Shown piece by piece: positions 6,655-61,157 of a DNA stretch of 64,000 nt. The notes beneath the pieces were generated by a model. It saw nothing but the letters and a program-made list of their open reading frames with translations, was not told the DNA's origin and ran no database searches. Within the stretch, counting starts at the first letter, position 1. Each line of letters starts with the position of its first letter. This DNA comes from a virus (Duplodnaviria > Heunggongvirae > Uroviricota > Caudoviricetes), in the IMG/VR virus record IMGVR_UViG_2541046997_000001, positions 35,307 to 99,306 of that record; one strand, given 5' to 3'. Both the position numbers and the translations under genes were made by a program.

Positions 6655-7761
6655 TTATTTTCCAAGAGAATCGAGGTTCTGGTCGTGAAGCATACCGATT
6701 TCATATTCTCTTCCAGGGACTAATAATGTTCCAAACTCCATGTCAAAACGGGAAAGTTGCATACCAGTTGTAACATCATTTCCAGAGAATGTTGTCAGTC
6801 CACCTCTTGTTACCATATGGATCGGAGACTGTCCTCCCTGTGGCATTACAAATGCAAGACCTGCCGGCAACATTGTTTCAAAGTTTGTACCATCTTTGTT
6901 CAGTGTTGTTAAGTCATATGGGTTTGGAATTTCTGCAAGAGTAGCACCATTATATACACCCATCAGTCCTGTATTATGAATTTCATCCATAATTGTACGA
7001 GAGATTCCGTTTACAGTCGGTGTTGTTCCCTCATATCCAGCGAATCCATTGAACTGTGCGATCATAGCGTAATCACCAGAGATTGTTGGTTTACCAAAAC
7101 GTCTAACATTTGCGATAACACCATCAACACCTGTCTTTGTAAGACCAGCTCCCTCGAAGAAATATTTCACACCTTTCGCATTTTTAATCGCTTTGTATGT
7201 TTCATCTACTACATATTTAGCAGCTTTATTTCTAATATCTGTACGAACCTGTTCCTGAAGCTCGTTCTCATCACTCATATCTCCAAGTGCTGCTTTTCTG
7301 TAGTCAACTGCATAACCACCAGAAATAGTAGTTGTTGCAATCGGTACACGTCTTTTTCTGATAGTCGGGAATTTTACATCCTGTCCAGCAGCCTGGATTT
7401 CAGCACCAGTATTTACGTACTCTGTGATTTCTACTTCACAAGACTCGTTATATCCGATCGGTTTGTAATTTCCGTAAATTCCAAGTAACTTGATTTCCTG
7501 CATCAACACTGGCTGCATTTTAAAACGTCTCAGTTCATTGATTTCAGAAATAGCAACTGGATCATTTGTTGCAGCTCTGCTATTTAACTCTTTAATATAT
7601 TTAGCTGCAGCATCAGCTGTATTTTTGTTATTAAATTTAGGCAGTTCTCTACCATCTGTCATAGCAGAGAATACTTCTACAACTGGGGAATTAGCATTAA
7701 TTTTCCCACTTACAAAAGAAGCATCTCTACGTTCATTATTTAATTCAAATGTATAACTCAT
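6655..7761 (-). CDS. Major capsid protein
   Basis: 368 aa after protease and decoration genes; RBS GGGAGA before ATG at 7761. Confidence 0.8.
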   Translation of the reverse strand: MSYTFELNNERRDASFVSGKINANSPVVEVFSAMTDGRELPKFNNKNTADAAAKYIKELNSRAATNDPVAISEINELRRFKMQPVLMQEIKLLGIYGNYKPIGYNESCEVEITEYVNTGAEIQAAGQDVKFPTIRKRRVPIATTTISGGYAVDYRKAALGDMSDENELQEQVRTDIRNKAAKYVVDETYKAIKNAKGVKYFFEGAGLTKTGVDGVIANVRRFGKPTISGDYAMIAQFNGFAGYEGTTPTVNGISRTIMDEIHNTGLMGVYNGATLAEIPNPYDLTTLNKDGTNFETMLPAGLAFVMPQGGQSPIHMVTRGGLTTFSGNDVTTGMQLSRFDMEFGTLLVPGREYEIGMLHDQNLDSLGK

Positions 7762-9476: not shown

Positions 9477-11228
9477 TTAACTCGCTCTCTTGATCTCAAC
9501 ATCCATATTAAATTGATTATCTAAAATATTTGAGATATTGTTTATGTCATTATAGAAAATTTCAAGTAACTCAATATTTTTTATTTCCGCATATTCACGC
9601 TTTCGCTTATCATGTTCTGTTTGAATTACAAATTGATCTTCTCCTCCGAAGTATTCCACAGGTTCTACATGCTGTTTCCCTTGTGCTTCTATTAAAAGAT
9701 TATATTCTGGAAGATAAAAGTCATAAGATAACAATCCGCCATTTACTCCGTATAGTCCATCAAAAGAATAATGTAATTTGTAACTTATTTTATGTTTATC
9801 TAAATACAGTTTTATATAGTATTCTAATTTAGAATTTGTGGTACAATTAGGACAATTACAAGATTTTAAAAGATCATGCGGCGTACGTTCAAAATTACGA
9901 TTGCAATTTGTACATAGAAATGTAGTGGAAGTAGACATGTCAACAAAGTCTCCAATTAATTTTATTGTTGAATTTTTTTTATCCAATCCGTCTATAAAAG
10001 AATTTAATTTAAGAATTCTATTCTTTTCTTGAGTACAATTTTTACATCCAATGGATGTATTAGAAATATAAGTCATTGTACTTTCGAATGTCCCTCCGCA
10101 TACATTACATTTAAAAGTTGCCGGAGTAGTAGCATTAATGTAATCTGATACAACACTTAAATTCATATTGTTTAATAATTCAGAATAATCACTTATGGAT
10201 TTGTATTTTGATTTGTCTCGTCTCTTTTGTGCACATATAGGACATCCGCGCCCACGTATTAAATTTTTGGATTTAGCCTTCCATTTATTACCACAAACAC
10301 CACATTCGCAGTCGAGCAAAGATTCAGAAGAAAAATAATTAGAAAAATCAATATTTATATTATTCCCAAATGACTTAACCTTTTCTACAACTTCTGTGTT
10401 AGAAAATCTTGCATTTGATTGACTTATAACTGAGGCACAATTTCTGTGCATACATCCTTGTATTAAACTTTCGTAAGAAGTTTCATATATAGCTCCGCAT
10501 AATAAACATTCGCATTTAATTCTTTTACATTCTTCGTCATATGATAATATCTTTGCATATTCAGATTTTTCTGAATGCAACCTATTAATTCGATTATTTA
10601 CAATATCAATCTTTCGCTTTGATTTAATTTTTCCGCCGCAATCTACACAGCCACAAGTTCTCCAAGCTCTTACGAGATCATATTTTGAAATGAATTCTTT
10701 TCCACATAATTGGCATCGAAATTTCGTTGGCGTTTTAGAATTTATATAATCTCCGACTATTTCCACTTTCAAATGTGATATTAAATCATTCACTTGTTCT
10801 TTTGTAAATTGATTATACTTAGGTGCTTCATTTCTACACAATTCACAAGTTACACCATTTAGTGCACTTTCAGGAGTTGTATTGAATAATACATTATGTT
10901 TTTTACATCTAAAAGTTACCTTCTTTTTCATGCTCTTATATCCATCTATGTATTCGATATCATCTCTTGTGCTGTATAAATCATTAAGAAAATCCTTTAA
11001 TGGTTTTATTCTTGCTTTCCGTACTCGTTCATTTCCACACATCGGACAACCGTACCCTCTCATCAAGGAATCAGATATTGGTTCCCATTCATAGTCACAA
11101 ACTTTGCATTTGCATTTTATCCTGTTTTTAATTCCACAATATTCTGATAATAATTCAATATTGTCAAAATTCTTATTTTTTAATTTCAATTCAGAAACAA
11201 ACTCTTCATGAGTTTTCTTTTTCGCCAT
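9477..11228 (-). CDS. Free-standing homing-type endonuclease with ~7 zinc-ribbon repeats and a C-terminal PD-(D/E)XK domain
   Basis: Repeated CxxC...GCPxC units; C-terminal SKLEYYIKLYL...SYDFYLPEYNLLIEAQGKQH. Confidence 0.8.
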   Translation of the reverse strand: MAKKKTHEEFVSELKLKNKNFDNIELLSEYCGIKNRIKCKCKVCDYEWEPISDSLMRGYGCPMCGNERVRKARIKPLKDFLNDLYSTRDDIEYIDGYKSMKKKVTFRCKKHNVLFNTTPESALNGVTCELCRNEAPKYNQFTKEQVNDLISHLKVEIVGDYINSKTPTKFRCQLCGKEFISKYDLVRAWRTCGCVDCGGKIKSKRKIDIVNNRINRLHSEKSEYAKILSYDEECKRIKCECLLCGAIYETSYESLIQGCMHRNCASVISQSNARFSNTEVVEKVKSFGNNINIDFSNYFSSESLLDCECGVCGNKWKAKSKNLIRGRGCPICAQKRRDKSKYKSISDYSELLNNMNLSVVSDYINATTPATFKCNVCGGTFESTMTYISNTSIGCKNCTQEKNRILKLNSFIDGLDKKNSTIKLIGDFVDMSTSTTFLCTNCNRNFERTPHDLLKSCNCPNCTTNSKLEYYIKLYLDKHKISYKLHYSFDGLYGVNGGLLSYDFYLPEYNLLIEAQGKQHVEPVEYFGGEDQFVIQTEHDKRKREYAEIKNIELLEIFYNDINNISNILDNQFNMDVEIKRAS

Positions 11229-11458: not shown

Positions 11459-13057
11459 CTACTTATTGTCACTTGGACTAGGGATATTATTTCCACCATT
11501 ATCCCTACTTTTTATTGTATTTTCTGTTGGTGTTTCCGTTTTGGGTCTTCCGGCGACATCATCATTTTTAGAAATTGTATTACTATTAAGATGTGGCAAA
11601 TATTTTTCGTATATTTTATTATCTATTTCTTCATCCAAAACCGAGAAGTACGCATCGGGATCCACACCTGTACTAGCAATGAGGAAACTCAACGATCCTC
11701 CAACATCGTACAAACCTTTCATCATATCAAAAAAGCTTTTTCGATTTACGAATGAAGTAGGGAAGTAGTAAACCTCGACCCGGTTTTTCTCATTTTGAAT
11801 AATGTTTTTATTGATTACATAATTCAATTCATTTTGCCATTCATTTACCCATACATATAGTTGTGCCGTTATCATCTCTAGGTTGCTTTGTGACGCTCCA
11901 TAGTTCCCTGTAGTCATAGCACCAATAAGAGCAGATGAAATACCCAAGTCAAGAGAAATCTGATCATTTAAATCAGATTCATTTTTGCTATCGAAAATAT
12001 CCGTAGATACATCTATAGAATCAAGTTTCGTGCCGGCGGCAACACTGAAAAATGAAATTCCACCACGAGAATTTTTATTCATAACTGCTTGTCTGACCGT
12101 TGCATGTTGCTGCTCCTGTTGTTTTCCAGTAAGAGAACTTGAACCTTTATCTTTTCCCTCTGGAAATGTCTGGTAAATAATTTTATTGTTGATTTCGTCT
12201 AATACATTTCTTTTTGTGTCAGTAAAATAATCTTTATATAGTACATCTGCAAGTGCAGCAATAATTAAACTTCGACCCCAAGGTTCAGAATCTTTGCATT
12301 TGATTTTTCGACACATTGTATGATCGTTGTCAAGAATAACCCAGTCTCCTCCGGTAGTCCGAGTATTACGACTATTGTATGCTTTTACAATTTCTTCAGG
12401 ATATTTTCTTAATTTTCTTTCCAGCTTGTCTCCGGTATAGTCGTCAAAATATCTTAGATTAAATGCAAGTACATATCGACCATTCTTCTTTCCAACAATT
12501 TTAGTATATTTCCACGGTAAGGAAATAATGGAAGCATTAATTCCGACCTCATTGATTTCCACAATATTTTCTACATCATAATCAGTCATAAATTTGGTCT
12601 TATCGTAGTTCTTCTTTTTCGTTTCAAAATAGAAAAAAGCGATTCCATCTAACATATCTGTAAACAATGCATTTCTGATAAATTGTCTGTCATCAATTTT
12701 TTCTAGGACAGATTTCATTAATGCTTTATTTGCCTGAACTGTCTTTGTGTTTCGTTTATTTTTACTTATTAAAATACGATCAAGACATGGTAGAGCAGTC
12801 ATATAATCGACTGAGTTGGATACGATACCGTTTTTGGTATATACAAAATTTGATAATCGAATTGCAGCATCGTGATTCCCGATAGGATCACGTAAAATAG
12901 AATCTATTTCTTCTTTAGAAAAGTAATCGTAAATACCACACGAGAATAAGCTACTTATATCCATCGGTGATACAAAACTATTAAATTCATATATATTAGC
13001 AGCAGGAGAGGACTCGTTTTGAATCTCTACCGATTGCTCTTTATTAACTTCTGGCAT
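11459..13057 (-). CDS. Portal protein
   Basis: 532 aa immediately after terminase large subunit. Confidence 0.8.
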   Translation of the reverse strand: MPEVNKEQSVEIQNESSPAANIYEFNSFVSPMDISSLFSCGIYDYFSKEEIDSILRDPIGNHDAAIRLSNFVYTKNGIVSNSVDYMTALPCLDRILISKNKRNTKTVQANKALMKSVLEKIDDRQFIRNALFTDMLDGIAFFYFETKKKNYDKTKFMTDYDVENIVEINEVGINASIISLPWKYTKIVGKKNGRYVLAFNLRYFDDYTGDKLERKLRKYPEEIVKAYNSRNTRTTGGDWVILDNDHTMCRKIKCKDSEPWGRSLIIAALADVLYKDYFTDTKRNVLDEINNKIIYQTFPEGKDKGSSSLTGKQQEQQHATVRQAVMNKNSRGGISFFSVAAGTKLDSIDVSTDIFDSKNESDLNDQISLDLGISSALIGAMTTGNYGASQSNLEMITAQLYVWVNEWQNELNYVINKNIIQNEKNRVEVYYFPTSFVNRKSFFDMMKGLYDVGGSLSFLIASTGVDPDAYFSVLDEEIDNKIYEKYLPHLNSNTISKNDDVAGRPKTETPTENTIKSRDNGGNNIPSPSDNK

Positions 13058-13073: not shown

Positions 13074-14696
13074 TTAATTTATAAGACATGTAAATTCATA
13101 GTCGGAAACCGCGTATATATCTCGACAAAACTCGTTTATATACCATAATACATATATGGTTGCAGACACACGGTCTTTGTCTAATTTGTTTACAACTTTT
13201 TCGATTGTTACTCCACCATTTGATAAATGTTTTAATTTAAGATTTGCGATCTCTTCAAATAAGCAATCAGTTTGAAGATAGGGGGCTACACAGTTATCAA
13301 AATCATCATATTCTTTCTCAGTAAAATCAGATTGTTGCCTACTTTCCAACATTCTAAATTTCCCACTATCTACAACATCAATAAAATTTGTAACGATTTT
13401 ACTTTGAACTGATTGAGCCTTCAGATTATATAAAATCTTCTCAGCAATTTCTGGAACTTCTGGAGTGTTATCATCATTAATTGTATCCCAACATCCAAGA
13501 GATTCTTTGGTGATTGGATCAAAACTTTCTTTAAGTAATTCGTCTATTAGCCCCGCACCAAGTCCGTTGCCATCAACGATTACGTTTTTCGCATTGTAAA
13601 GTTTTTTGTATTTTTTTATGACACATGCTTGTGCTGTGAAATTCATAATATTGGGGATATTAACAAGATTGACAAGATCCATTGATACAATTTTTGTCTT
13701 GTCTTTTGTTCTATTGACTTTTATTACAGATATGAATGATTGATTATTACTTGTATTTTGACTTCTTGCGACATCCACACCAATATAAAATTCATCTTCT
13801 TTGTTTTTCGATGAAAGAATTGGGGATGTTAAAGATCTGCAATTCATAAGTTTATTAACATTTACTAAAGCACCAGACGCTGCTCCGACCCATTTTGATT
13901 CATAGTTTTGTGCGAAAGAAATCATTGTCATGTCTCGTTTCTTCTGAAAAATCTGACTTTTTGTTGAACCACGTCCATACCAGCAAGGCAGCCAAAAACT
14001 TGAACCCAGAACAATTTTACCGTTAAGATTCACCATATCTTTTACCATATCAACAGATCTTTGATATTCATCAGAGCCTTTAAACCCGGCAGTAGTGAAA
14101 AAGTTGATTTGCTGATTCAATTCTTCTGGATCAACTATTGAATATTTTCCAACACAAACTCTAGGAACTTCTACAATCGGTAACAAAGCATCCAAAAAAG
14201 TATCATTGTCAATTAATGCAGATTCTTCCATGTTAATTCTTTTTCTACGTTGTCCCTTCGATGTTTGTGCGTTTGCTAAATTATCCAGTCTTGATCCATT
14301 TTTAAATACAACAAGAGCATCACCTTTAGCAAAATTAGCCTTGTCTATCTCATTTTTAAGCAATGGATAAAACCTAAGTATTTCATTATATTTATCTTTT
14401 AAAAGGTCTGCTGCGTTTTCTTTTGTTTGAGCAGATAAAGAAATAGAAATTTCTGGGAAAAATATACAAGCCAGCATTGACGCAAGCACTTCGTCAAATG
14501 TTTTTCCATAACCTCGTGGGAATACTCCATAAAAAGATGTGAATCTTAACATTACTCTTAGATAAATACGCTGATCTAAATGTAAATTTAATCCACCTTT
14601 GGGCGGCTTTATTAAATCTAAGAATGAATCAGGGAACCATCTTGAATAACTACAAAAATATTCCCAATTATCGATATTAAATCCGTAATCATCCAT
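13074..14696 (-). CDS. Terminase large subunit
   Basis: Walker A-like FPRGYGKT, INMEES Walker B, nuclease YIGVDVAR and KDRVSA motifs. Confidence 0.92.
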   Translation of the reverse strand: MDDYGFNIDNWEYFCSYSRWFPDSFLDLIKPPKGGLNLHLDQRIYLRVMLRFTSFYGVFPRGYGKTFDEVLASMLACIFFPEISISLSAQTKENAADLLKDKYNEILRFYPLLKNEIDKANFAKGDALVVFKNGSRLDNLANAQTSKGQRRKRINMEESALIDNDTFLDALLPIVEVPRVCVGKYSIVDPEELNQQINFFTTAGFKGSDEYQRSVDMVKDMVNLNGKIVLGSSFWLPCWYGRGSTKSQIFQKKRDMTMISFAQNYESKWVGAASGALVNVNKLMNCRSLTSPILSSKNKEDEFYIGVDVARSQNTSNNQSFISVIKVNRTKDKTKIVSMDLVNLVNIPNIMNFTAQACVIKKYKKLYNAKNVIVDGNGLGAGLIDELLKESFDPITKESLGCWDTINDDNTPEVPEIAEKILYNLKAQSVQSKIVTNFIDVVDSGKFRMLESRQQSDFTEKEYDDFDNCVAPYLQTDCLFEEIANLKLKHLSNGGVTIEKVVNKLDKDRVSATIYVLWYINEFCRDIYAVSDYEFTCLIN

Positions 14697-19785: not shown

Positions 19786-20808
19786 TTAAACAAATGCATC
19801 ATCAGCATCATCAGAGTCTTCACGAATTACATATATTTGGGTAGTTTCGCTTGATTCATGCCCCAATAATTTCTGAGCTGTTTCAAGTGGGCGATGATTA
19901 TACACAACTAAATTAGTTGCCCTACTTCTTCGGAGACCGTGGGGAGTAAGTCTCTGCCCAACAATTGCTGAAAATTCATTAATACACCAATCATTGAATA
20001 CGCCTTCGCTCACTTGTCTTGTTTCGCCATTCTTTTGTTTAATTACAAACATGTAAGGACAATCATCTTCGCCACGAACTTCAATCCATTTTTTTAAAGC
20101 AATCATCACATCTTCGCCAAATTGAAGCTTTCTGATTTTACCAACTTTGCTTCTTCCTTTACACCTTATATCATGAGTTTTATACGAAACAGATTCTACT
20201 TCATGTTCTACTCCGTCTTCATCGATTATTTTTACCATTTTTCTTTTAGGTTCATAATTAATTACTTCTTTTAACAATTGCCTAGATTCAGCGCGGCGGC
20301 AGCCTGTGGAATATGTGTATTTTACGTAAGCTAATTTTTGCCACTCCTCACGTTTTTCTAATTCATTACATAGATAATCAATTTGCTCAGGAGTCAAAGG
20401 CTCTTTTGAAAATACTTTTCCTGTTTTGGGAACCTGCATTTCGGCAGTTACAAAATTACGAAAAGTTGGATATTCATCCTCATAAAAATTTTCAATAAAT
20501 TTATTCATAGCACTAACAGCAGATTTTTTAAATTTAATTCCGGATTCAGAAAAGCCTCTATTTGCAAGCCAATTCATATATCTAAGAAATTCTTTCTTTT
20601 TAATATCTATACACTTTTTATCTCGTAAATTATTTTTCACCCAAAGAAAAAATATTCTTAAGGCTGATTTGTACGCATTTATGCTTTTAGGTGAAAGATG
20701 TGTTTGATTGTTAAGATAATCATCAACCATTTCCCTATTAAATTCATTTACTGTTAACCAAATTTCATCTGTAATATCTTCTGATCTATTTGCTATCTTT
20801 TCATTCAA
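19786..20808 (-). CDS. Tyrosine recombinase
   Basis: YSTGCRRAE, KG, HGLRRSRAT, LGHESSETTQIY catalytic motifs. Confidence 0.92.
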   Translation of the reverse strand: MNEKIANRSEDITDEIWLTVNEFNREMVDDYLNNQTHLSPKSINAYKSALRIFFLWVKNNLRDKKCIDIKKKEFLRYMNWLANRGFSESGIKFKKSAVSAMNKFIENFYEDEYPTFRNFVTAEMQVPKTGKVFSKEPLTPEQIDYLCNELEKREEWQKLAYVKYTYSTGCRRAESRQLLKEVINYEPKRKMVKIIDEDGVEHEVESVSYKTHDIRCKGRSKVGKIRKLQFGEDVMIALKKWIEVRGEDDCPYMFVIKQKNGETRQVSEGVFNDWCINEFSAIVGQRLTPHGLRRSRATNLVVYNHRPLETAQKLLGHESSETTQIYVIREDSDDADDAFV

Positions 20809-21050
20809 AACATCACTTCCTTTTATTTAAATATTTATTTTCTCCTCACTCCATAGAAATAGGAGAGAAGCGCGAATGAGGTTACGCTTATCCGGTGGCT
20901 CATGACTTCCACCGTATCCCTCCTTGATATCCAATGTATCATTGAAGAATACAGCTAAACTGCATTGGATTTTCATTTGTCTTTGGTAGAGATAAACAAT
21001 CTGTTCACAATTCTCTTTACTTGTCAGACTGACAAACCATATGTATTTAA

Positions 21051-21824
21051 CTAATTTTTTGAGTTACAGATCCATTTTCCGTAATTTTCAATAATCCATT
21101 TTCTTCCTTTTTCTGTCCACTTCAAACACAGGTTAGAATTTTCAACATTATAGCTTTTGTAGTCTGCATAGTTTTCAGTGATAAGCCATTCATAGTCTGC
21201 ATAAGGACACCATGTACCAGAACTATTTTTAAAGATAATATTATTTGAATGCATTAGGTTGTTTAATTTTGCTGCACTGCGTAATCCTAAATCTTTTGCG
21301 ATAACAGTAGTATTAATAAGATCGTCTTTATTCAATACTTCGTCATGGTAATCCGCTTTTGGTTTCATTACTGTGTTCTCTGCAATGAGTGGTGCTGTAG
21401 CTCTATCTACCTCAATAGCAACTAATTTTTGATGAGATTGAACAACAACAAGTGGATCTTTATCAAACAATCCTAATCGTAGCTGATCTTCATTACTGAT
21501 ATAATTACCTGTTTTCCTAATAGAAGGTAATACTTCTGAAGTAACCCAGTGCTTAAAACTTTTCGCTGATTCCAGCTTACTCCCAAAGATGAGAGCATAA
21601 AGACCAGATTCATTAATTACCGTTACTGTTCTTCTCTGACCTGCGTACTCGATTTGGGTACTCAGCTTATCTTCGTCTAATACATGTTTAGGGACTGCGT
21701 TTTTAGGATTTGCATACCCCAATGCTTCGGCTACATCTTTTCCAACAAACCACGGCTCGTTATTAATTACAATTGTTCTTACTTGTCCAAACTCTTCGTT
21801 TTCAAAAATTTTTATTTCTTCCAT
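21051..21824 (-). CDS. Bro-N/KilAC (ANT) antirepressor
   Basis: FENEEFGQVRT...EPWFVGKDVA..LGY N-terminus; MKPKADYHD..L..DDLINTTVIAKD C-terminus. Confidence 0.9.
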   Translation of the reverse strand: MEEIKIFENEEFGQVRTIVINNEPWFVGKDVAEALGYANPKNAVPKHVLDEDKLSTQIEYAGQRRTVTVINESGLYALIFGSKLESAKSFKHWVTSEVLPSIRKTGNYISNEDQLRLGLFDKDPLVVVQSHQKLVAIEVDRATAPLIAENTVMKPKADYHDEVLNKDDLINTTVIAKDLGLRSAAKLNNLMHSNNIIFKNSSGTWCPYADYEWLITENYADYKSYNVENSNLCLKWTEKGRKWIIENYGKWICNSKN

Positions 21825-22056
21825 ATAAAATTCCTCCAATATTTTTAATTGAAGGTAGAGATAGGAGAGTATCAACCGTCCTACTTTAACTCTTTATCAG
21901 ATTATCCATCTGGCCAATTACCGGCAGCGCAGTCGGAACTTACCCGACACATTCCTTTTGCTGATGTCTTAATTTCTTATTCTCCTAATTGAGAACACAA
22001 AAATAGATCCGTAAGCTGTGACACCTACGGATCCCAAAAAGTATATGAGTATTAAA

Positions 22057-22997: not shown

Positions 22998-24188
22998 CTA
23001 AGTGAATTTAACATCATATACACAATCTAATCCGTCATCTGTTATAACTGAAATTAATTGCTCAGGTCTGTTTTGTAATCTATTGTCTAAGCAATAATTA
23101 TCAACGCCAGAAATGCAGCCTGACTGTAAAATTTTCACATTATAAACAGTAGACATTGCATTTACATGACGATGGCTCATATATACAATATCCGGTCGTA
23201 TTTGCGTCATAAGAGACAGTTTTTGTACAACTGTTTTTGGATCATCTTTATCTCCGTGGACACCAAAAATTTTTGTACCTCTAACAGAAAACATCACAAT
23301 TGATTCATCAATTTCATTTTCATGGAATTCAATGTTCTTAAAGTTCTGTAACTTAGCCTGTAAAAATGGAATAGCAAGACAGTCCATATTTTCGCCTTTC
23401 AAAGACTCTTCCTTTTTTGCATGTAATCTGGAATGATTTCCGGGACAAACATAAACGTGAACTTCATTAAATTTATAACTAAGTTCTGCTAAAAATTGTG
23501 AAATACAATCCGATACGGATAAGAACTGTTCAATCAGATTCTGATTGCTTTCAATACGAAGAGAGTTATGGATCAACCCAGAAATCATCTCGCTTATAAT
23601 TACATGAATGTTCTCTGATCCATGTCGTAAATATACTTCAAAAATTTTATCCAAATATTGCCTAAATCTATCATACATAACATTTGTGTTGTATTTATTA
23701 AACCAGTTATCGATTTCAATTCCTCCATGAATATCTGTTACTGAAACGACTAAATCATTGTTGGATTTCAAAATTCCTTTAAACGGTTTTCTCTTATCGT
23801 AATCCAGTGGCTGTCCGTGATATTCAGAAATTGATCTTAGAATTTGTTCTTTATAAGATTCTTTTCTAGCTTCTTCACGAATCAATTTACGATATTCATT
23901 ACGCTCATCGCGTGTTTTAATACGCTCCTTTTCTAAAAGAATACGCTCTTCCTTTAGTTCTTGAAGCTGTGCAGCGCTATTTGCAAACTTAGATTGATTT
24001 GCATCAAGAACTTGCTGAAAATACTGAACTCGTTTTCTGTAGGCTGATTCTGTATAATTATGACCGAGAAGAGAATTTAGCACTGTAGCTACATCATTCC
24101 AAGTTCCGATATTTTCTTTATCATTACAAATTCTCAGGATAAGTTCATCATCGCTTTCTCCGTCAAACTTTTTATAATTATGTACTAT
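22998..24188 (-). CDS. Metallophosphoesterase-fold protein (SPbeta YonJ-like position); probable ATA start
   Basis: VTDIHGG, PGNHSR, GVHGD, SHRH motifs; frame open to ATA at 24188 with AAGGCGGTG RBS, while the GTG at 24083 has no RBS. Confidence 0.75.
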   Translation of the reverse strand: MVHNYKKFDGESDDELILRICNDKENIGTWNDVATVLNSLLGHNYTESAYRKRVQYFQQVLDANQSKFANSAAQLQELKEERILLEKERIKTRDERNEYRKLIREEARKESYKEQILRSISEYHGQPLDYDKRKPFKGILKSNNDLVVSVTDIHGGIEIDNWFNKYNTNVMYDRFRQYLDKIFEVYLRHGSENIHVIISEMISGLIHNSLRIESNQNLIEQFLSVSDCISQFLAELSYKFNEVHVYVCPGNHSRLHAKKEESLKGENMDCLAIPFLQAKLQNFKNIEFHENEIDESIVMFSVRGTKIFGVHGDKDDPKTVVQKLSLMTQIRPDIVYMSHRHVNAMSTVYNVKILQSGCISGVDNYCLDNRLQNRPEQLISVITDDGLDCVYDVKFT

Positions 24189-24202
24189 AACAACACACCG
24201 CC

Positions 24203-24406
24203 TTACATTTCTTCAGATTCCAGTGGTAATTCCACAGTGATTTTAAACCCAACCTGTTCTGTTCCTTCTGGAAGCGCATCAAGAACCTGCTGTGTAATAT
24301 CGCCTGTTTCGTCTACAAATTTTAAATCTTTTACAAAGATTCCATCTAATTTAATATTCTGTTTTGCTGGTGTTAATTTTTCTTCTGTTTTTGTAATTTT
24401 AATCAT
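24203..24406 (-). CDS. Small hypothetical protein (YonK-like position)
   Basis: ORF with RBS GGAGAA. Confidence 0.65.
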   Translation of the reverse strand: MIKITKTEEKLTPAKQNIKLDGIFVKDLKFVDETGDITQQVLDALPEGTEQVGFKITVELPLESEEM

Positions 24407-24684: not shown

Positions 24685-24729
24685 TTTAAAAACCTTCTTC
24701 CATATTTATTTCCCCGTAAGGGATAGTAA

Positions 24730-24800
24730 CAGGTCGGGCAGGAGTTGAACCTGCATCGTTAGTTTTGGAGACTATAATGCTACCATTACACCACCGACCC
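24730..24800 (-). tRNA. tRNA-Trp(CCA)
   Basis: GGGTCGG...CCGACCT acceptor; ATAGT-CTCCAAA-ACTAA anticodon arm; GCAGG-TTCAACT-CCTGC T arm. Confidence 0.93.
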
Positions 24801-24964
24801 AATGTGAGAAACTGGCAGCAATACCGCAAGATTTACGGTATCACTACCAGTTAAGAAAGGAGCGTATGAAGAATTCATACAAAAATGAAAATAAGTATTT
24901 ACCTATGGACATAGATGGAACTTCTCCCTACATTAACATACCGTCATAATATTCTGTCACTATT

Positions 24965-25560
24965 TACAAAAGGCTGGGCACAAAGGAGCTACCTTTATAC
25001 CTCTTTTGCATCTGATAAACAGCAATTATAGATGTGAGTGGTTACACATAACTTTCACCCAGGTCATTCAGCAATATATGAGAGCAGATATTAAACCATT
25101 GTTCTATTAATATAATTTTCCAATCCTTTTTAATTCGTCAATTTGGGCTACTCGCACCTCTAACAGATCTTATACAAAAATTTCTTTTTTTCAACGACGC
25201 AACTGACTTGTTTGGATTTTCCTTACTTATTTCCTATAAGATTCCACCCTTATAGGCATCAGGATTATTACTCCACCGGAGTCGTCTATTATGCCAGTGA
25301 TCTGACGAGTACATTTTACGGCAATATGTTTTTGCAAATATGTTTGATTTTGACGGTTTCCGTCTTTCTGTTTATACCTCGCAGTATTCCAGAAGATACA
25401 ATATGAAACTATCGCATCATATCACATCTCATCGTACACATATTCTCAGCATGGTGACTAACCAATCTGCACTGAGTTACCTATATCCATAAGCAAATAC
25501 TTATTCGGGCAAAAGCCCAAGCCCCATATTAGGGGCTATATTTTTATAGATATATCTCCG
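24965..25560 (-). ncRNA. Candidate large structured ncRNA (ROOL/GOLLD-class context); boundaries approximate
   Basis: ORF-free on the minus strand, dense hairpins with G-U pairs on the minus strand, upstream of tRNA-Trp. Confidence 0.6.
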
Positions 25561-25725
25561 TATTTATTAAACGCTTCGGCAATAGCGTTAGAGAGAAAAT
25601 TGCAAAGATCATGTTTCCTCTCCATATTACGGACGAAGTTGAATGTTAAAAAACATTGATTTTAAAGGATATTTTAGCAGTTTAGACAAAATAATTCGGC
25701 ATTTTTTGTGATAAATATACAAATT

Positions 25726-28488
25726 CTATTTCGAAATAAAGTTTTGCAGAAAAACATCCTTGTTCATTTTATATAAATAATTCAATATTTTTCTTGAATA
25801 TTTAGAACTAATACCTTTTGTCTTATGGCTGTTCCCAACACCATTATCTAGACCAAATGCTGTTTCAATTAATCTGTTTATTGTTACGACATTTCTAATT
25901 TTAATTTTTCTTAATTCAGCTAGAAGATTATTAGATTCAGAAACCAGCTGCTCATTAATTTCATCTTGATCATCATTAGTGATATGAAGATTTTTTACAA
26001 ATTTATCATAATCTTCAATCAATCCTCTTATTTTCGTCATCTGCCGGTTATTTGCTTTTCCATCCATTTTGATAAAAAAATCTGAAATAGGAACGGATTT
26101 TGATGTACTTGCAGGTTTTATTCCATCAAGACATTCTTCGAGCCAATTCATCGGACATATTAATGATGGATTGATTCTATTTTTTAATTTGTTCTTGTTT
26201 TCAATAATCTCTTTTTGAGGCAATTCTTTACCGTTTTTTGTTATTTTAACTGTTCGTGTGTATCTCATAAATTCAGGAAAGTCATATTTCTTTTTTACGG
26301 TTTTCCCTTCCTTATTCACGCCAGATCTAGTTAATTTCATACATGGCATTTTACTTATTCTATCAATTTCTTTCATTGCATCGATTTCATATTCCCTTTT
26401 GCATCCATCAATAACAACTTGAGCAAGAACCGATAGTATTACAAAGTTATCATACAAATCTTTTAAGATTATTTCGTCAGGAATTTCTTTTTGTAATTCA
26501 GTCCAATAATAGGTTAGAGCTAACTGTGCCAGGTTACTAGAATATCCTATTCCAATTCTTGATTTTGAGAATTTGTTATCCATTCGAGCATATTCTAACA
26601 TTGTGTTCTTATATGTAATACCACTTTCTTTTAAGGCATTTACAATGGTAGGAAAATCACGATAACAAATTTCTGCGTATTTTACCATAACAGGATTGTT
26701 TGTAACCAAGTTAAAATCCGAGTCGAAATCCTCCCCGTTCATACGGTCTTGAACATCTGTGCCAATGCAATTTACTGCCATAATATTTTTACTAAAGTCA
26801 AAATATCTTGACATTTCTGGGCTGTACACATTGTGGAAATGGCAACAATTGTTTGGTGAATTATGAGGATTTCTAAATCCGCAAAGATATTCTCCATCAT
26901 CAAATCTACGTGTGTAACATTGGATGCTATTTTCCTCCGGTGAAAAAGTTGGATCTTGTGTCCAGTCTTCTCCAACTGAATAGAGTAGAAGGGCATATGG
27001 ATTACCACACACTGTTAGATTGTCACCATTAACAAGAATTTTACCTTTTCTCATTCTATGAACATAATCAAAGATTATTTTCTTTTTTTCATTTCTAAAC
27101 CACGATGAATCAGCAATATTATTATTATATTTATATAAGTCAGCAAGCATTTCGTAATGATTTATCTCGTTAGAATATTTTCGTAAAAATTTTTCAAACT
27201 CGTTATTATCAGTTTTTAATGACTCAATATATTTTACTGTATCCGATGCAATCTCATAAACATCTTCTTTATGACACGGCAGAGTGTTGATCATTTGATA
27301 ACTCAACTGTTGTAATTCATCAAATTTACTTTTATGATCTGTTTTCACAATTCCCCATATATTATTATCTTTACGAATTCTTTCGCACCAGTATTCATAT
27401 GCAGCTAATGGTGTTCCACCCATTATATCAATAAATTTTTTCCACTTTATAGCATTGTCTGTTGTGATTACCTTTATATCTTTTACATAATGCAGATTTC
27501 CAAACATATCTTTTACTTGATATGTGTCATAATCTAATCCATTTTGCAAACACCAATCTCTGAAAAATAATTGAATGCGACCTTTAAATCCACACATTTT
27601 AAATAGATGATTTCGTAATAAAGCCATACCATTTATCCACTTTGGAAGATATGAAGATTCAATAATTCCCATACCGTCCCAAAGAGTATTCTTTACCTCT
27701 CGTTCTTCCGAAGCAACTATACATTTTTTCTTTTCGATACCAGTTATATCTTTATATTTTTCCGCTTTTACTACCTTTACAAATGTTTTAAAGAATGAAT
27801 CTTGATCTTTTAAAATCAAAATATCTTCAACAGGAATACTCATTGTTCCAACAATAGTAGATGTGGTGAGAGGGGCATAAGCCGACATTTCTACAATCTT
27901 AGCATTATCGTGTGACATTTTTTTACCCAAACCAATAGTTAACCAATCATACGCATTCTCATATAATTTTTCATTTATGAAAATAACTTGTCCAACTTTT
28001 GCTTTTGCACTGGTTCTAAATAGCATTACATAATGGATAGTTTCAATAATTTCTTTTCCTTCTTTATCGGTGTGTTTATAGGATATATCAACTCCATTCT
28101 GATAAAAGTCTTCTCTAATTTCATCTCTGTTTTTTTCTTTATATAATTTTTTCTTTTCTTCTATTTTTTTTAGAAGATATTCAATTTTTTCTTTATTTTC
28201 TATTGAATCTGTATTATCCTTTAAAGTTTCAAGCCGTTTCTTTTCATCTTCATAAGATCGACTTCCGAAATCAAAATCTAAACATATTATGTCACGAGTA
28301 AATTCTTTTTTGTTCTTAGCATTTTTATGAATATTGATTCCGTTTTCTTTAAGATGATAACTAAACAAACTATTATTTAGCATAGCTTCTGTGTAAGTAA
28401 AATAATCTCTTACACCAATATTTGTATCATAAACCATACCAGCTTTTATATTTTTAATTCTAATTCCAAATTCACTTATGTTCTCCAT
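25726..28488 (-). CDS. yonO: YonO-like single-subunit DNA-dependent RNA polymerase (RdRP-like fold)
   Basis: 920 aa; NTLWDG, RNHLFK, FRNPH and catalytic DFDSD; directly upstream of the co-oriented late operon, as in SPbeta. Confidence 0.85.
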   Translation of the reverse strand: MENISEFGIRIKNIKAGMVYDTNIGVRDYFTYTEAMLNNSLFSYHLKENGINIHKNAKNKKEFTRDIICLDFDFGSRSYEDEKKRLETLKDNTDSIENKEKIEYLLKKIEEKKKLYKEKNRDEIREDFYQNGVDISYKHTDKEGKEIIETIHYVMLFRTSAKAKVGQVIFINEKLYENAYDWLTIGLGKKMSHDNAKIVEMSAYAPLTTSTIVGTMSIPVEDILILKDQDSFFKTFVKVVKAEKYKDITGIEKKKCIVASEEREVKNTLWDGMGIIESSYLPKWINGMALLRNHLFKMCGFKGRIQLFFRDWCLQNGLDYDTYQVKDMFGNLHYVKDIKVITTDNAIKWKKFIDIMGGTPLAAYEYWCERIRKDNNIWGIVKTDHKSKFDELQQLSYQMINTLPCHKEDVYEIASDTVKYIESLKTDNNEFEKFLRKYSNEINHYEMLADLYKYNNNIADSSWFRNEKKKIIFDYVHRMRKGKILVNGDNLTVCGNPYALLLYSVGEDWTQDPTFSPEENSIQCYTRRFDDGEYLCGFRNPHNSPNNCCHFHNVYSPEMSRYFDFSKNIMAVNCIGTDVQDRMNGEDFDSDFNLVTNNPVMVKYAEICYRDFPTIVNALKESGITYKNTMLEYARMDNKFSKSRIGIGYSSNLAQLALTYYWTELQKEIPDEIILKDLYDNFVILSVLAQVVIDGCKREYEIDAMKEIDRISKMPCMKLTRSGVNKEGKTVKKKYDFPEFMRYTRTVKITKNGKELPQKEIIENKNKLKNRINPSLICPMNWLEECLDGIKPASTSKSVPISDFFIKMDGKANNRQMTKIRGLIEDYDKFVKNLHITNDDQDEINEQLVSESNNLLAELRKIKIRNVVTINRLIETAFGLDNGVGNSHKTKGISSKYSRKILNYLYKMNKDVFLQNFISK

Positions 28489-34847: not shown

Positions 34848-36377
34848 ATGGAGAGTGATTGTTTGAGTAACAAATCATATATATCGATAGATTTAAAAAG
34901 TTTCTATGCATCAGTGGAGTGTATAGAACGAGGGCTAGATCCGCTAACAACGAATTTAGTTGTTGCGGACAATAGTCGTACAGAAAAGACCATTTGCTTG
35001 GCAGTAACTCCTTCCTTAAAATCATATGGCATTTCAGGCAGACCAAGATTATTTGAGGTTGTTCAACAAGTAGATAAGATAAATGCAAGTAGATTCTATC
35101 AATTAAAAAATAAGGAGTTTACTGGAAATTCTTACGATAAAAAAGATTTAGATAAAAATTTGAATCTAAAAGTTGATTATATAGTTGCTCCTCCGCGAAT
35201 GGCTTTTTACATGAAATACAGTGCAGAAATTTATAATATTTATCTGAAATATGTTTCACCAGAAGATATCCATGTATATTCTATTGATGAAGTATTTATA
35301 GATGCAACTTCTTATTTAAATGTATACGGATTGTCTGCAAAAGAATTAACACAGAAGATGATTTTAGATGTACTGAATACTACTGGCATTACCGCAACCG
35401 CCGGAATCGGAACAAATTTGTATTTGGCAAAAGTTGCTATGGACATTGTTGCAAAGCATATTCCGGCAGATGAACACGGAGTCAGAATTGCTGAATTGGA
35501 TGAGATGTCTTACCGTAAGCAACTTTGGAATCATAAACCTCTCATAGATTTTTGGCGAGTGGGAAAAGGATACGTAAAACAATTAGAGTCCGTTGGTTTA
35601 TATACGATGGGAGATATTGCAAGATGTTCACTGGGTACTGAAAATGATTTTTACAATGAAGACTTGCTGCGAAAAATGTTTGGTAAAAATGCGGAATTAT
35701 TAATCGACCATGCATGGGGATATGAACCATGTGCTATTGCAGATATTAAGAAATATAAGCCTGAGAGCAATAGTATTGGGAGTGGACAGGTGCTTCAAAA
35801 TGGAACAGATTATAAAACTACAAAATTAATTGTCCGTGAAATGACAGAGAACTTAGTTTTGGATCTAGTAAGTAAAAATCTTGTTACAGATCAGATTGTG
35901 TTAACAATAGGATATGATAGAGAAAATTTATTGGATTCCGCAAGGATGAGTGCATATCAAGGTGAGTTTTCTGTCGATCAATATGGTAGAAAGATACCTA
36001 AACATGCACATGGAACGATTAATTTGGGTGAGCACACATCTTCTACGAGTATGATTGTAAAAGACGTTTTAGATCTGTTTGAAAGAATCATAAACAAGAA
36101 CTTATTAGTAAGAAGGCTTAATATGTCGGCTAATCATGTAATAAATAAAAATTCTGCCATGAAGAATACTTATGAGCAGTTAAATTTATTTGATTTGATG
36201 AACAAGCAAGAGTGTAAAGAAGAGAAGGAGCTTCAAGAAAAAGAGGAAAATATTCAAAAGGCTGTTTTAAATATTAAAAATAAATTTGGAAAGAATGCGA
36301 TTCTCAAAGGGATGAGTCTACAAGAAGGTGCGACTATGAGAGATAGAAATAATCAGATAGGTGGACATAAGGCATAG
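34848..36377 (+). CDS. Y-family DNA polymerase (UmuC/DinB/UvrX-like)
   Basis: SIDLKSFYASVEC, YSIDEVFID, TAGIGTNLYLAKVAMD, FWRVGKG; start may be the TTG at 34863. Confidence 0.95.
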   Translation: MESDCLSNKSYISIDLKSFYASVECIERGLDPLTTNLVVADNSRTEKTICLAVTPSLKSYGISGRPRLFEVVQQVDKINASRFYQLKNKEFTGNSYDKKDLDKNLNLKVDYIVAPPRMAFYMKYSAEIYNIYLKYVSPEDIHVYSIDEVFIDATSYLNVYGLSAKELTQKMILDVLNTTGITATAGIGTNLYLAKVAMDIVAKHIPADEHGVRIAELDEMSYRKQLWNHKPLIDFWRVGKGYVKQLESVGLYTMGDIARCSLGTENDFYNEDLLRKMFGKNAELLIDHAWGYEPCAIADIKKYKPESNSIGSGQVLQNGTDYKTTKLIVREMTENLVLDLVSKNLVTDQIVLTIGYDRENLLDSARMSAYQGEFSVDQYGRKIPKHAHGTINLGEHTSSTSMIVKDVLDLFERIINKNLLVRRLNMSANHVINKNSAMKNTYEQLNLFDLMNKQECKEEKELQEKEENIQKAVLNIKNKFGKNAILKGMSLQEGATMRDRNNQIGGHKA

Positions 36378-59845: not shown

Positions 59846-60500
59846 GTGGAATACATAATTACAAATGGCAAAATCTCCATATGTTTAGACGAAAAAGGAA
59901 GACCTGTCACATGTGGTAAAAAAGAAGCACATTCTTTTAGCAAAGAGAAGGCAGAAAATATATTAAACAACCTTCCAAGCGTCCTAAAAAACTTCCATTT
60001 TAAAATTAGATGTGTTTCTCCGGGAGGAAGTAAAAAAAGATACAAAAAATGAATGTAACAATCACAAAGCTGATGATTGTAAAGGTGAAAAAACAGTATT
60101 ATATGGTGAAGATTATGAACCGTGCAAAGAGGTAGTCAAATGGATGGAATTATCAAAATCATGTGATGTTCTATTTAGTGAAGCCAGGAAAAGAAGAAGT
60201 GAATTACATAAAAAATTATCTAATGTGGACAAGGAATTGTCTAACGCTATGCACGAAATAGAACTTGAAAAGTGGAAGAGTGGATCTGATGGCTATAAAG
60301 AATATAAAAAGGTCAAAGAAGTTTTGCAGAAACGTAGAAAAATAAAAGATGAGCTTCTTGTAGTTCAGTCCGTTATAACAAACACAAAAGGATCAATTAA
60401 TTTAAAAAATATTGAAAAAACTTTTGAGATGTTAAGTACGAGACATTTTACTATGAGAATCATAGAAGAAGATAATCCGTTTGATGGAATAGAAGATTAA
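59846..60500 (+). pseudogene. Two overlapping ORFs, probably one gene with a +1 frameshift near 60022
   Basis: 59846-60052 and 60012-60500 overlap; removing one G from CCGGGAG joins the frames. Confidence 0.45.
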
Positions 60501-60518
60501 GAAAAGAGGTAATGAGGA

Positions 60519-61157
60519 ATGGATAAAGAGGAGTGGAAGAATCAAATCGCAAATGAATACTGTGGTAACAATATGAGAAAACTTCGAAAGATTTGTGACA
60601 AGATTTTAAAAGCTAGAAATATTCCAAAAGAACATTGGGAGAGCTTTTATGATCGTGCTGTTGATATTTTTCTTGAGAGTATTAATTCCTATGATGATTC
60701 CAAAGAATGTAAGTTTAATACTTATTTTTATGGGAATCTAAGACGGAGAACTGGAACATGGTTTAGAGATAATTTTCGATTTAAGAGATGTAATTTGGAA
60801 AGAGATTTTATTGGGAATATCATAAAAGATGAAAAGGGAAACCCTACGATTATTCCGAATGTTTCTATACATATGAAAGTTGATCCGGAAGAGGATTGTA
60901 TTTTGGAAGAGATTATTTCCTCTAATTATAATTTAGAGAGAGAAATAATGAATAAATTATATCCAACCACAGATAGAGTAGAACTTTATAAAAGTAAATT
61001 ATCTTATAGTCAACAATTGGTTGTAGATCTTATGTGTGCCGGATATACAGAAAATGAAATCTTATCAGAATTACATATTTCTAGGGAAGAGTACAAAGAT
61101 AAAATTTTAGACACGATGAAACTATATGAAAATGTAAAAGTATTATTACGAGAATAA
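60519..61157 (+). CDS. Sigma factor-like protein
   Basis: DIFLESINSYDDSKECKFNTYFYGNLRRR (region 2-like); LSYSQQLVVDLMCAGY...EILSEL (region 4-like). Confidence 0.7.
   Translation: MDKEEWKNQIANEYCGNNMRKLRKICDKILKARNIPKEHWESFYDRAVDIFLESINSYDDSKECKFNTYFYGNLRRRTGTWFRDNFRFKRCNLERDFIGNIIKDEKGNPTIIPNVSIHMKVDPEEDCILEEIISSNYNLEREIMNKLYPTTDRVELYKSKLSYSQQLVVDLMCAGYTENEILSELHISREEYKDKILDTMKLYENVKVLLRE

Follow-up and report, generated by a model that had tools for sequence, protein, structure and literature searches.

A complete ROOL RNA gene at the likely late-operon start of an SPbeta-like gut provirus

The locus and its gene order

The analysed stretch of DNA (64,000 nt, hereafter the window) belongs to a 164-kb SPbeta-like gut provirus. 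Its host is probably a member of the Lachnospiraceae, and related phages were found mostly in Lachnospiraceae and other Clostridia. The features relevant here lie on the minus strand and are given in downstream order.

25726 to 28488, minus: YonO-like single-chain RNA polymerase, 920 aa, DFDSD motif near residues 587-591
25506 to 25643, minus: conserved structured element, ~140 nt, directly behind the YonO-like gene; no Rfam family
24890 to 25505, minus: ROOL RNA, ~616 nt (cmscan, folding z, covariation)
24729 to 24801, minus: tRNA-Trp(CCA), 88 nt downstream of ROOL
24203 to 24406, minus: YonK-like small protein, 67 aa, weak assignment
22998 to 24083, minus: YonJ-like metallophosphoesterase/exonuclease, 361 aa (YonJ_N; PHROG exonuclease)
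13074 to 14696, minus: terminase large subunit (PHROGs)
11459 to 13057, minus: portal (PHROGs)

Pfam, PDB and PHROGs gave no name for the polymerase, and profile comparison gave YonO of SPbeta (hhalign probability 85.9%, E 5.3e-6, 386 columns), with DFDSD aligned on DNDGD. By this alignment the 920-aa product is a YonO homolog with the catalytic aspartate triad and a predicted polymerase. An identical polymerase is encoded on scaffold KE150435.1 of assembly GCA_000411335.1. The YonK assignment rests on Pfam YonK being matched by 2/7 positional homologs (best E 3e-4); the direct profile match with the 67-aa protein was not significant. The YonJ-like protein shared 23% identity with SPbeta YonJ (E 4e-18).

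Downstream of the polymerase the same strand carries the RNA slot, the yonK-like and yonJ-like genes, and then terminase, portal, structural genes and holin. The SPbeta order is yonO, yonN, gap, yonK, yonJ. In SPbeta, YonO initiates the one late operon at a point preceding yonK and an ncRNA that is not annotated (Forrest et al. 2017, PMC5467207); published primers bracket that late start at about 60,330-60,575 of AF020713. Since the gene order is that of the SPbeta late start, ROOL lies where the late transcript should begin, and this indirectly suggests that it is transcribed with the late operon. Sigma-70 promoters were not in excess over shuffles (9 found vs 9.0 expected), with no good one upstream of ROOL on the minus strand and no terminator behind ROOL. 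One assembled metatranscriptome contig spans polymerase and ROOL alike. A canine contig covers 24904-25504 almost exactly; that run was probably DNA, with the flanks covered too, and neither contig speaks for expression.

The window holds further genes of note. An HNH/homing endonuclease follows the portal gene (9477-11228, minus), the late region also contains a tyrosine integrase-like gene (19786-20808, minus) and an antirepressor (21051-21875, minus), and a Y-family (ImpB/MucB/SamB) DNA polymerase lies at 34848-36377 (plus).

Identity and predicted fold of the RNA

A cmscan search of the window, a check proposed in an earlier note made from the sequence alone, matched ROOL (Rfam RF03087) with 336.8 bits against a gathering score of 99.1 (3.4 times the cut-off, E 6.5e-77). 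The match runs from 25500 to 24898 on the minus strand and covers model positions 1-574 of 574 without truncation. The interval 25505-24890 is thereby confirmed as a complete gene for this already-described RNA family (Weinberg et al. 2017, PMC5737381). ROOL is present only once in the provirus of 164,212 bases. The only other Rfam matches in the window were two tRNAs; OLE, group I/II introns and the remaining families gave no match above gathering score. The GOLLD (RF02032) 3'-domain model had no match in the window or in the provirus, and the RNA region had no DNA match among GenBank phages.

The RNA also folds better than chance, as the earlier note had asked to see, with a z of -5.4 for the full span 24890-25505 and -3.7 for the Rfam span 24898-25500 relative to dinucleotide shuffles; coding controls of the same length gave +1.1 and +0.4. 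The covariation sought among homologs was found as well: two-sided, compensatory change occurred at 116/163 pairs in an alignment of 8 sequences of the phage family, with a covariation term of -35 kcal/mol. The RNA is closed by a terminal helix of 27/27 bp (23 Watson-Crick, 4 G-U), which seven homologs retain at 22-26/27 pairs.

The ORF-poor gap described in the earlier note measures 924 nt, from the polymerase stop (25726) to tRNA-Trp (24801). The sole minus-strand ORF of 40 aa or more in it has 47 aa, starts 28 nt before tRNA-Trp and continues through the tRNA; two short ORFs (64 and 50 aa) lie on the plus strand. The candidate bounds given there, 24965-25560, were shifted by 55-75 nt, missing the last 75 nt of ROOL and taking in ~55 nt of the upstream element. 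All of its stem motifs were found where implied, and the list lacked the 27-bp terminal helix. Two of the hairpins, AGCCCC/GGGGCT (25537-25520) and GGGC/GCCC (25518-25507), fall outside ROOL in the separate upstream element. Two further pairings are probably wrong, as neither is retained in homologs: the Rfam alignment pairs TGGGT with AGCCCA across the linker instead of CTGGGT with GCCCAG, and TCT with a distal AGTG instead of CATCT with AGATG.

The following parts of the RNA were located, with helix and loop names (P7, L8, J6/8, L18) mapped putatively from the numbering of Kretsch et al. (PMC12286853) onto the Rfam alignment.

25479 to 25505, minus: terminal helix, 5' arm, pairs with 24916-24890
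25270 to 25282, minus: ACUCC-GGU-GGAGU hairpin, putative P7 (apical ring, bridge B3)
25242 to 25247, minus: loop GUGGAA, putative L8, half of the inter-chain kissing pair B4
25212 to 25217, minus: junction AUCCAA, putative J6/8, partner of L8
25064 to 25141, minus: A/U-rich variable linker (Rfam alignment)
24985 to 24993, minus: loop with an AGCU palindrome (24990-24987), putative L18, self-kissing bridge B6 between half-shells (PMC12286853)
24890 to 24916, minus: terminal helix, 3' arm, pairs with 25505-25479

ROOL cages have been solved for env-120, Efa, Lsa and Firm and are stable at ~10 nM; all are protein-free octamers or hexamers that form hollow cages (PMC12286853, PMC12990946, PMC12515178). 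By cryo-EM, env-120 and Efa are octamers and Lsa a hexamer (PMC12286853, PMC12990946), and the variable linker sits within the cage (PMC12286853). In our RNA the linker carries a 23-nt insertion relative to the Rfam consensus, and homologs are unalignable there. The complementarity behind the predicted main inter-chain contact is kept: UGGA of L8 (25246-25243) is complementary to UCCA of J6/8 (25216-25213) at 4/4 pairs, and the fourth pair is A-U here vs U-A in four homologs, a compensatory swap. The AGCU palindrome of the putative L18 is shared with three homologs; four others have a different loop. The putative P7 is a full-length 5-bp hairpin.

The upstream element and slot content in related phages

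We surveyed 96 related viral loci anchored on the polymerase gene. Most ROOL and GOLLD labels come from nhmmer profiles, built from these relatives and run on the 4 kb downstream of the polymerase. The slot held ROOL in 26 loci, GOLLD of two lineages in 24, neither in 46 and both in 0, the last two counts being qualified by the fact that a whole-record GOLLD search missed copies which a local E-value scan caught. ROOL is dispensable across the phage family.

GOLLD lineage 1 (22 loci) is a ~810-nt conserved, covarying RNA with a terminator at its end. Those copies that were scored matched the whole model with 76-100 bits (E 1e-18 to 1e-28; cut-off 150). This lineage (L012:7250-8102 and 21 other loci) is divergent and full length, and default annotation would miss it. 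Lineage 2, in L094 and L104, scored over the cut-off at 162 and 171 bits, and the two lineages had no blastn similarity to each other.

Near-identical phages differ in slot content. The polymerases of L020 (ROOL), L016 and L017 (GOLLD) and L015 (neither) are 98.6-99.4% identical (99.2-99.4% for L020 vs L016/L017). Up to +242/+252 behind the polymerase stop their DNA is 98-99.8% identical, and past that point the sequences diverge; for L020 vs L016/L017 the identity before it is >99% and the DNA beyond is unrelated. The ROOL/GOLLD breakpoint lies directly behind the ~140-nt element. In the polymerase tree of the first set of loci the labels were interleaved, forcing at least 4 changes for ROOL and at least 7 for GOLLD. 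Among dereplicated loci of the clade with both RNAs, 2.0-2.3 overlaps were expected and the probability of no overlap was 0.058, or 0.031 once L094 and L104 were reclassified. Mutual exclusion of ROOL and GOLLD is thus marginal (P 0.03-0.06, with loci that are not independent) and may reflect allelic, block replacement.

Among the further genes carried in the slot or next to it are variable tRNAs, PIN-PhoH, beta-CASP nucleases and a PD-(D/E)XK endonuclease. A ROOL 5' remnant of ~120 nt precedes tRNA-Pro in one relative (L014:7030-7146); the L007 copy (from about 7490) is broken off near nt 490 and followed by a 503-aa ORF that has no Pfam match. In the L084 slot, ~1 kb of DNA between about +230 and +1450, counted from the polymerase stop at 6733, is free of ORFs. 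Its local folding z is near -4, neither Rfam nor the other fetched loci yielded a match, and it is possibly a further large RNA. The polymerase gene itself is lengthened or interrupted in several relatives (L054, L042, L044, L051), and the L054 interruption (L070:1017-1326) gave a weak group I intron match of 31 bits, below cut-off.

The ~140-nt element at the edge of the slot contains the AGCCCC and GGGC hairpins and has no Rfam match. A covariance model built from 12 copies found it once in this provirus and in 52/53 loci of the first set, whatever the slot content, and a sequence profile found it in 84/96 loci. Its folding z is -4.1 here and weaker in some homologs. Two-sided change occurred in 13/23 consensus pairs, a value reached in 0/500 shuffles; several of the 13 are contributed by the clade of the window, in which the alignment of the 3' hairpins is poor. 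The element is most readily read as a candidate late-promoter region plus structured leader.

We made several further observations on this element. The element, which lies at L012:6880-7034 in one relative and recurs in homologs, includes a short self-complementary segment of varying sequence, AGAUAUAUCU here and CUUGCAAG in others. On the plus strand, the AGCCCC/GGGGCT hairpin at 25520-25537 looks like an intrinsic terminator and could stop antisense transcription leaving ROOL. SPbeta has three similar motifs on the minus strand, roughly ATAAT-N-GTCAT-TTATGA-GG (L071:20430-20470, 20590-20615, 21215-21250), one of which lies in the stretch that the published primers mark out for the late promoter. 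The element's start (25640-25620, GTCCGTAATATGGAGAGG) resembles these motifs by eye and is a lead toward a candidate YonO promoter. A reading of the 5'-end motif as a repeated promoter was rejected, as the motif did not recur before other late genes.

Interpretation and comparison with known systems

We consider it likely that the locus as a whole is explained by a ROOL gene in an SPbeta-like late position. Late transcription would probably be initiated by the YonO-like polymerase within the ~140-nt element (25640-25506) or shortly ahead of it. A precursor of the order leader-ROOL-tRNA(Trp)-yonK would then be processed to release ROOL; RNase P could plausibly cut at the 5' end of the tRNA, with trimming taking place around the closing helix of 27 bp. 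The mature RNA would with high probability form a hollow dihedral cage by protein-free self-assembly. An octamer is more likely than a hexamer, because P7 is full length here and ultrashort at the apex of the L. salivarius hexamer.

What such a cage would do is a matter of speculation. Given the patchy, rapidly turning-over distribution of the RNA, the RNA-related genes nearby and the counter-defence that phage tRNAs are known to provide, an abundant stable cage may tentatively be seen, like the adjacent tRNA, as an accessory factor supporting late translation. It could conceivably act as a decoy or shelter in hosts with RNA-attacking defences or stress. Phage tRNAs are reported to counter tRNA-cutting defences (PMC10264068, PMC11464382). 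An L. salivarius ROOL deletion did not yield a definitive function (PMC5643018). GOLLD might be able to serve in ROOL's role, and in SPbeta-like gut phages the two may be accessory late RNAs that can functionally replace each other behind a conserved ~140-nt leader RNA; we regard either proposal as possible, if doubtful. Earlier proposals of a shared role draw only on the resemblance of contexts and of cages (PMC5737381, PMC12286853). In searchable papers we found neither the SPbeta-like late-start position of ROOL and its exchange with GOLLD nor the putative ~140-nt leader element.

The two RNAs stand at somewhat under an even chance of being unrelated cargo with differing functions in a recombination hotspot, the slot being replaced as a block. 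Homologous recombination between the upstream element and the downstream tRNA or small genes would then yield the apparent exclusion. That slot also holds tRNAs, nucleases and unknown ORFs and has neither RNA in 46/96 loci, its breakpoints fall at the end of the conserved flank, and the exclusion P is only 0.03-0.06. Against this reading, a single ~1.5-kb slot has received ROOL and both GOLLDs, three separate lineages of large RNA, and it often carries several modules in tandem, which implies room for both RNAs. The other RNA was also not found at a second site in 91 records, in a GOLLD search that missed some known copies.

Expression from the lysogen by host polymerase, as a moron-like RNA helping the host under stress, appears unlikely. 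In its favour, the record is a provirus, and ROOL from the L. salivarius megaplasmid builds up in growing cells, to levels above 16S rRNA, with no phage cycle involved (PMC5643018). Our ROOL, however, has the SPbeta late-start position and neither a good minus-strand sigma-70 promoter upstream nor a terminator behind it. As a multimeric RNA encoded ahead of terminase and portal, at the front of the late operon, ROOL might recall phi29 pRNA, the classic natural RNA multimer, and so a core virion-assembly RNA. We hold this to be very improbable, given that 70/96 related loci lack ROOL, near-complete genomes among them, and that a 5' remnant (L014) and a broken copy (L007) exist. With so many relatives lacking it an essential packaging role is unlikely, and ROOL counts as accessory, and probably late, rather than as a core packaging RNA. 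The earlier note had allowed for a ROOL-like or a new large RNA. It is ROOL itself; a new class merely resembling ROOL could appeal to sequence divergence and the linker insertion and nothing further, and the end-to-end, untruncated match leaves it next to no probability.

Taken by itself the RNA is unremarkable, since its family is described and its structures have been solved; it is the exchange of ROOL and GOLLD at the probable late start, together with an undescribed candidate leader element, that lifts the case modestly above routine. Alternative occupancy of one late-start slot in near-identical phages points to late infection as the time to look; it speaks against packaging as an essential role and invites a direct test by swapping the two. 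If the two RNAs are interchangeable, natural phage pairs with 99% identical polymerases and ROOL, GOLLD or neither are a ready comparison for cage function.

SPbeta and this provirus have in common the order yonO, non-coding gap, yonK, yonJ, terminase, portal. They differ in the place of the HU gene, which precedes the gap in SPbeta and follows yonJ here, and in that the SPbeta gap lacks ROOL, GOLLD and any match to the ~140-nt element. The SPbeta yonN-yonK gap carries a DUF3800-VIII RNA above cut-off and a sub-threshold skipping-rope match (L071:19410-19475, 20720-20829). GOLLD (RF02032) is, like ROOL, a cage-forming prophage RNA found near tRNAs, and it fills the same slot in 24 loci; its sequence and fold are unrelated to ROOL and none occurs in this provirus. 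With the ROOL family (RF03087) our RNA shares its approximate length (616 nt vs a mean of 581 nt), the full consensus fold with its variable linker, the tRNA-adjacent prophage location and, under the putative helix numbering, the L8/J6-8 complementarity. It departs from the family in the 23 nt added to its linker, a terminal helix that reaches 27 bp, and CCCAG in the pseudoknot segment where homologs have CUCAG.
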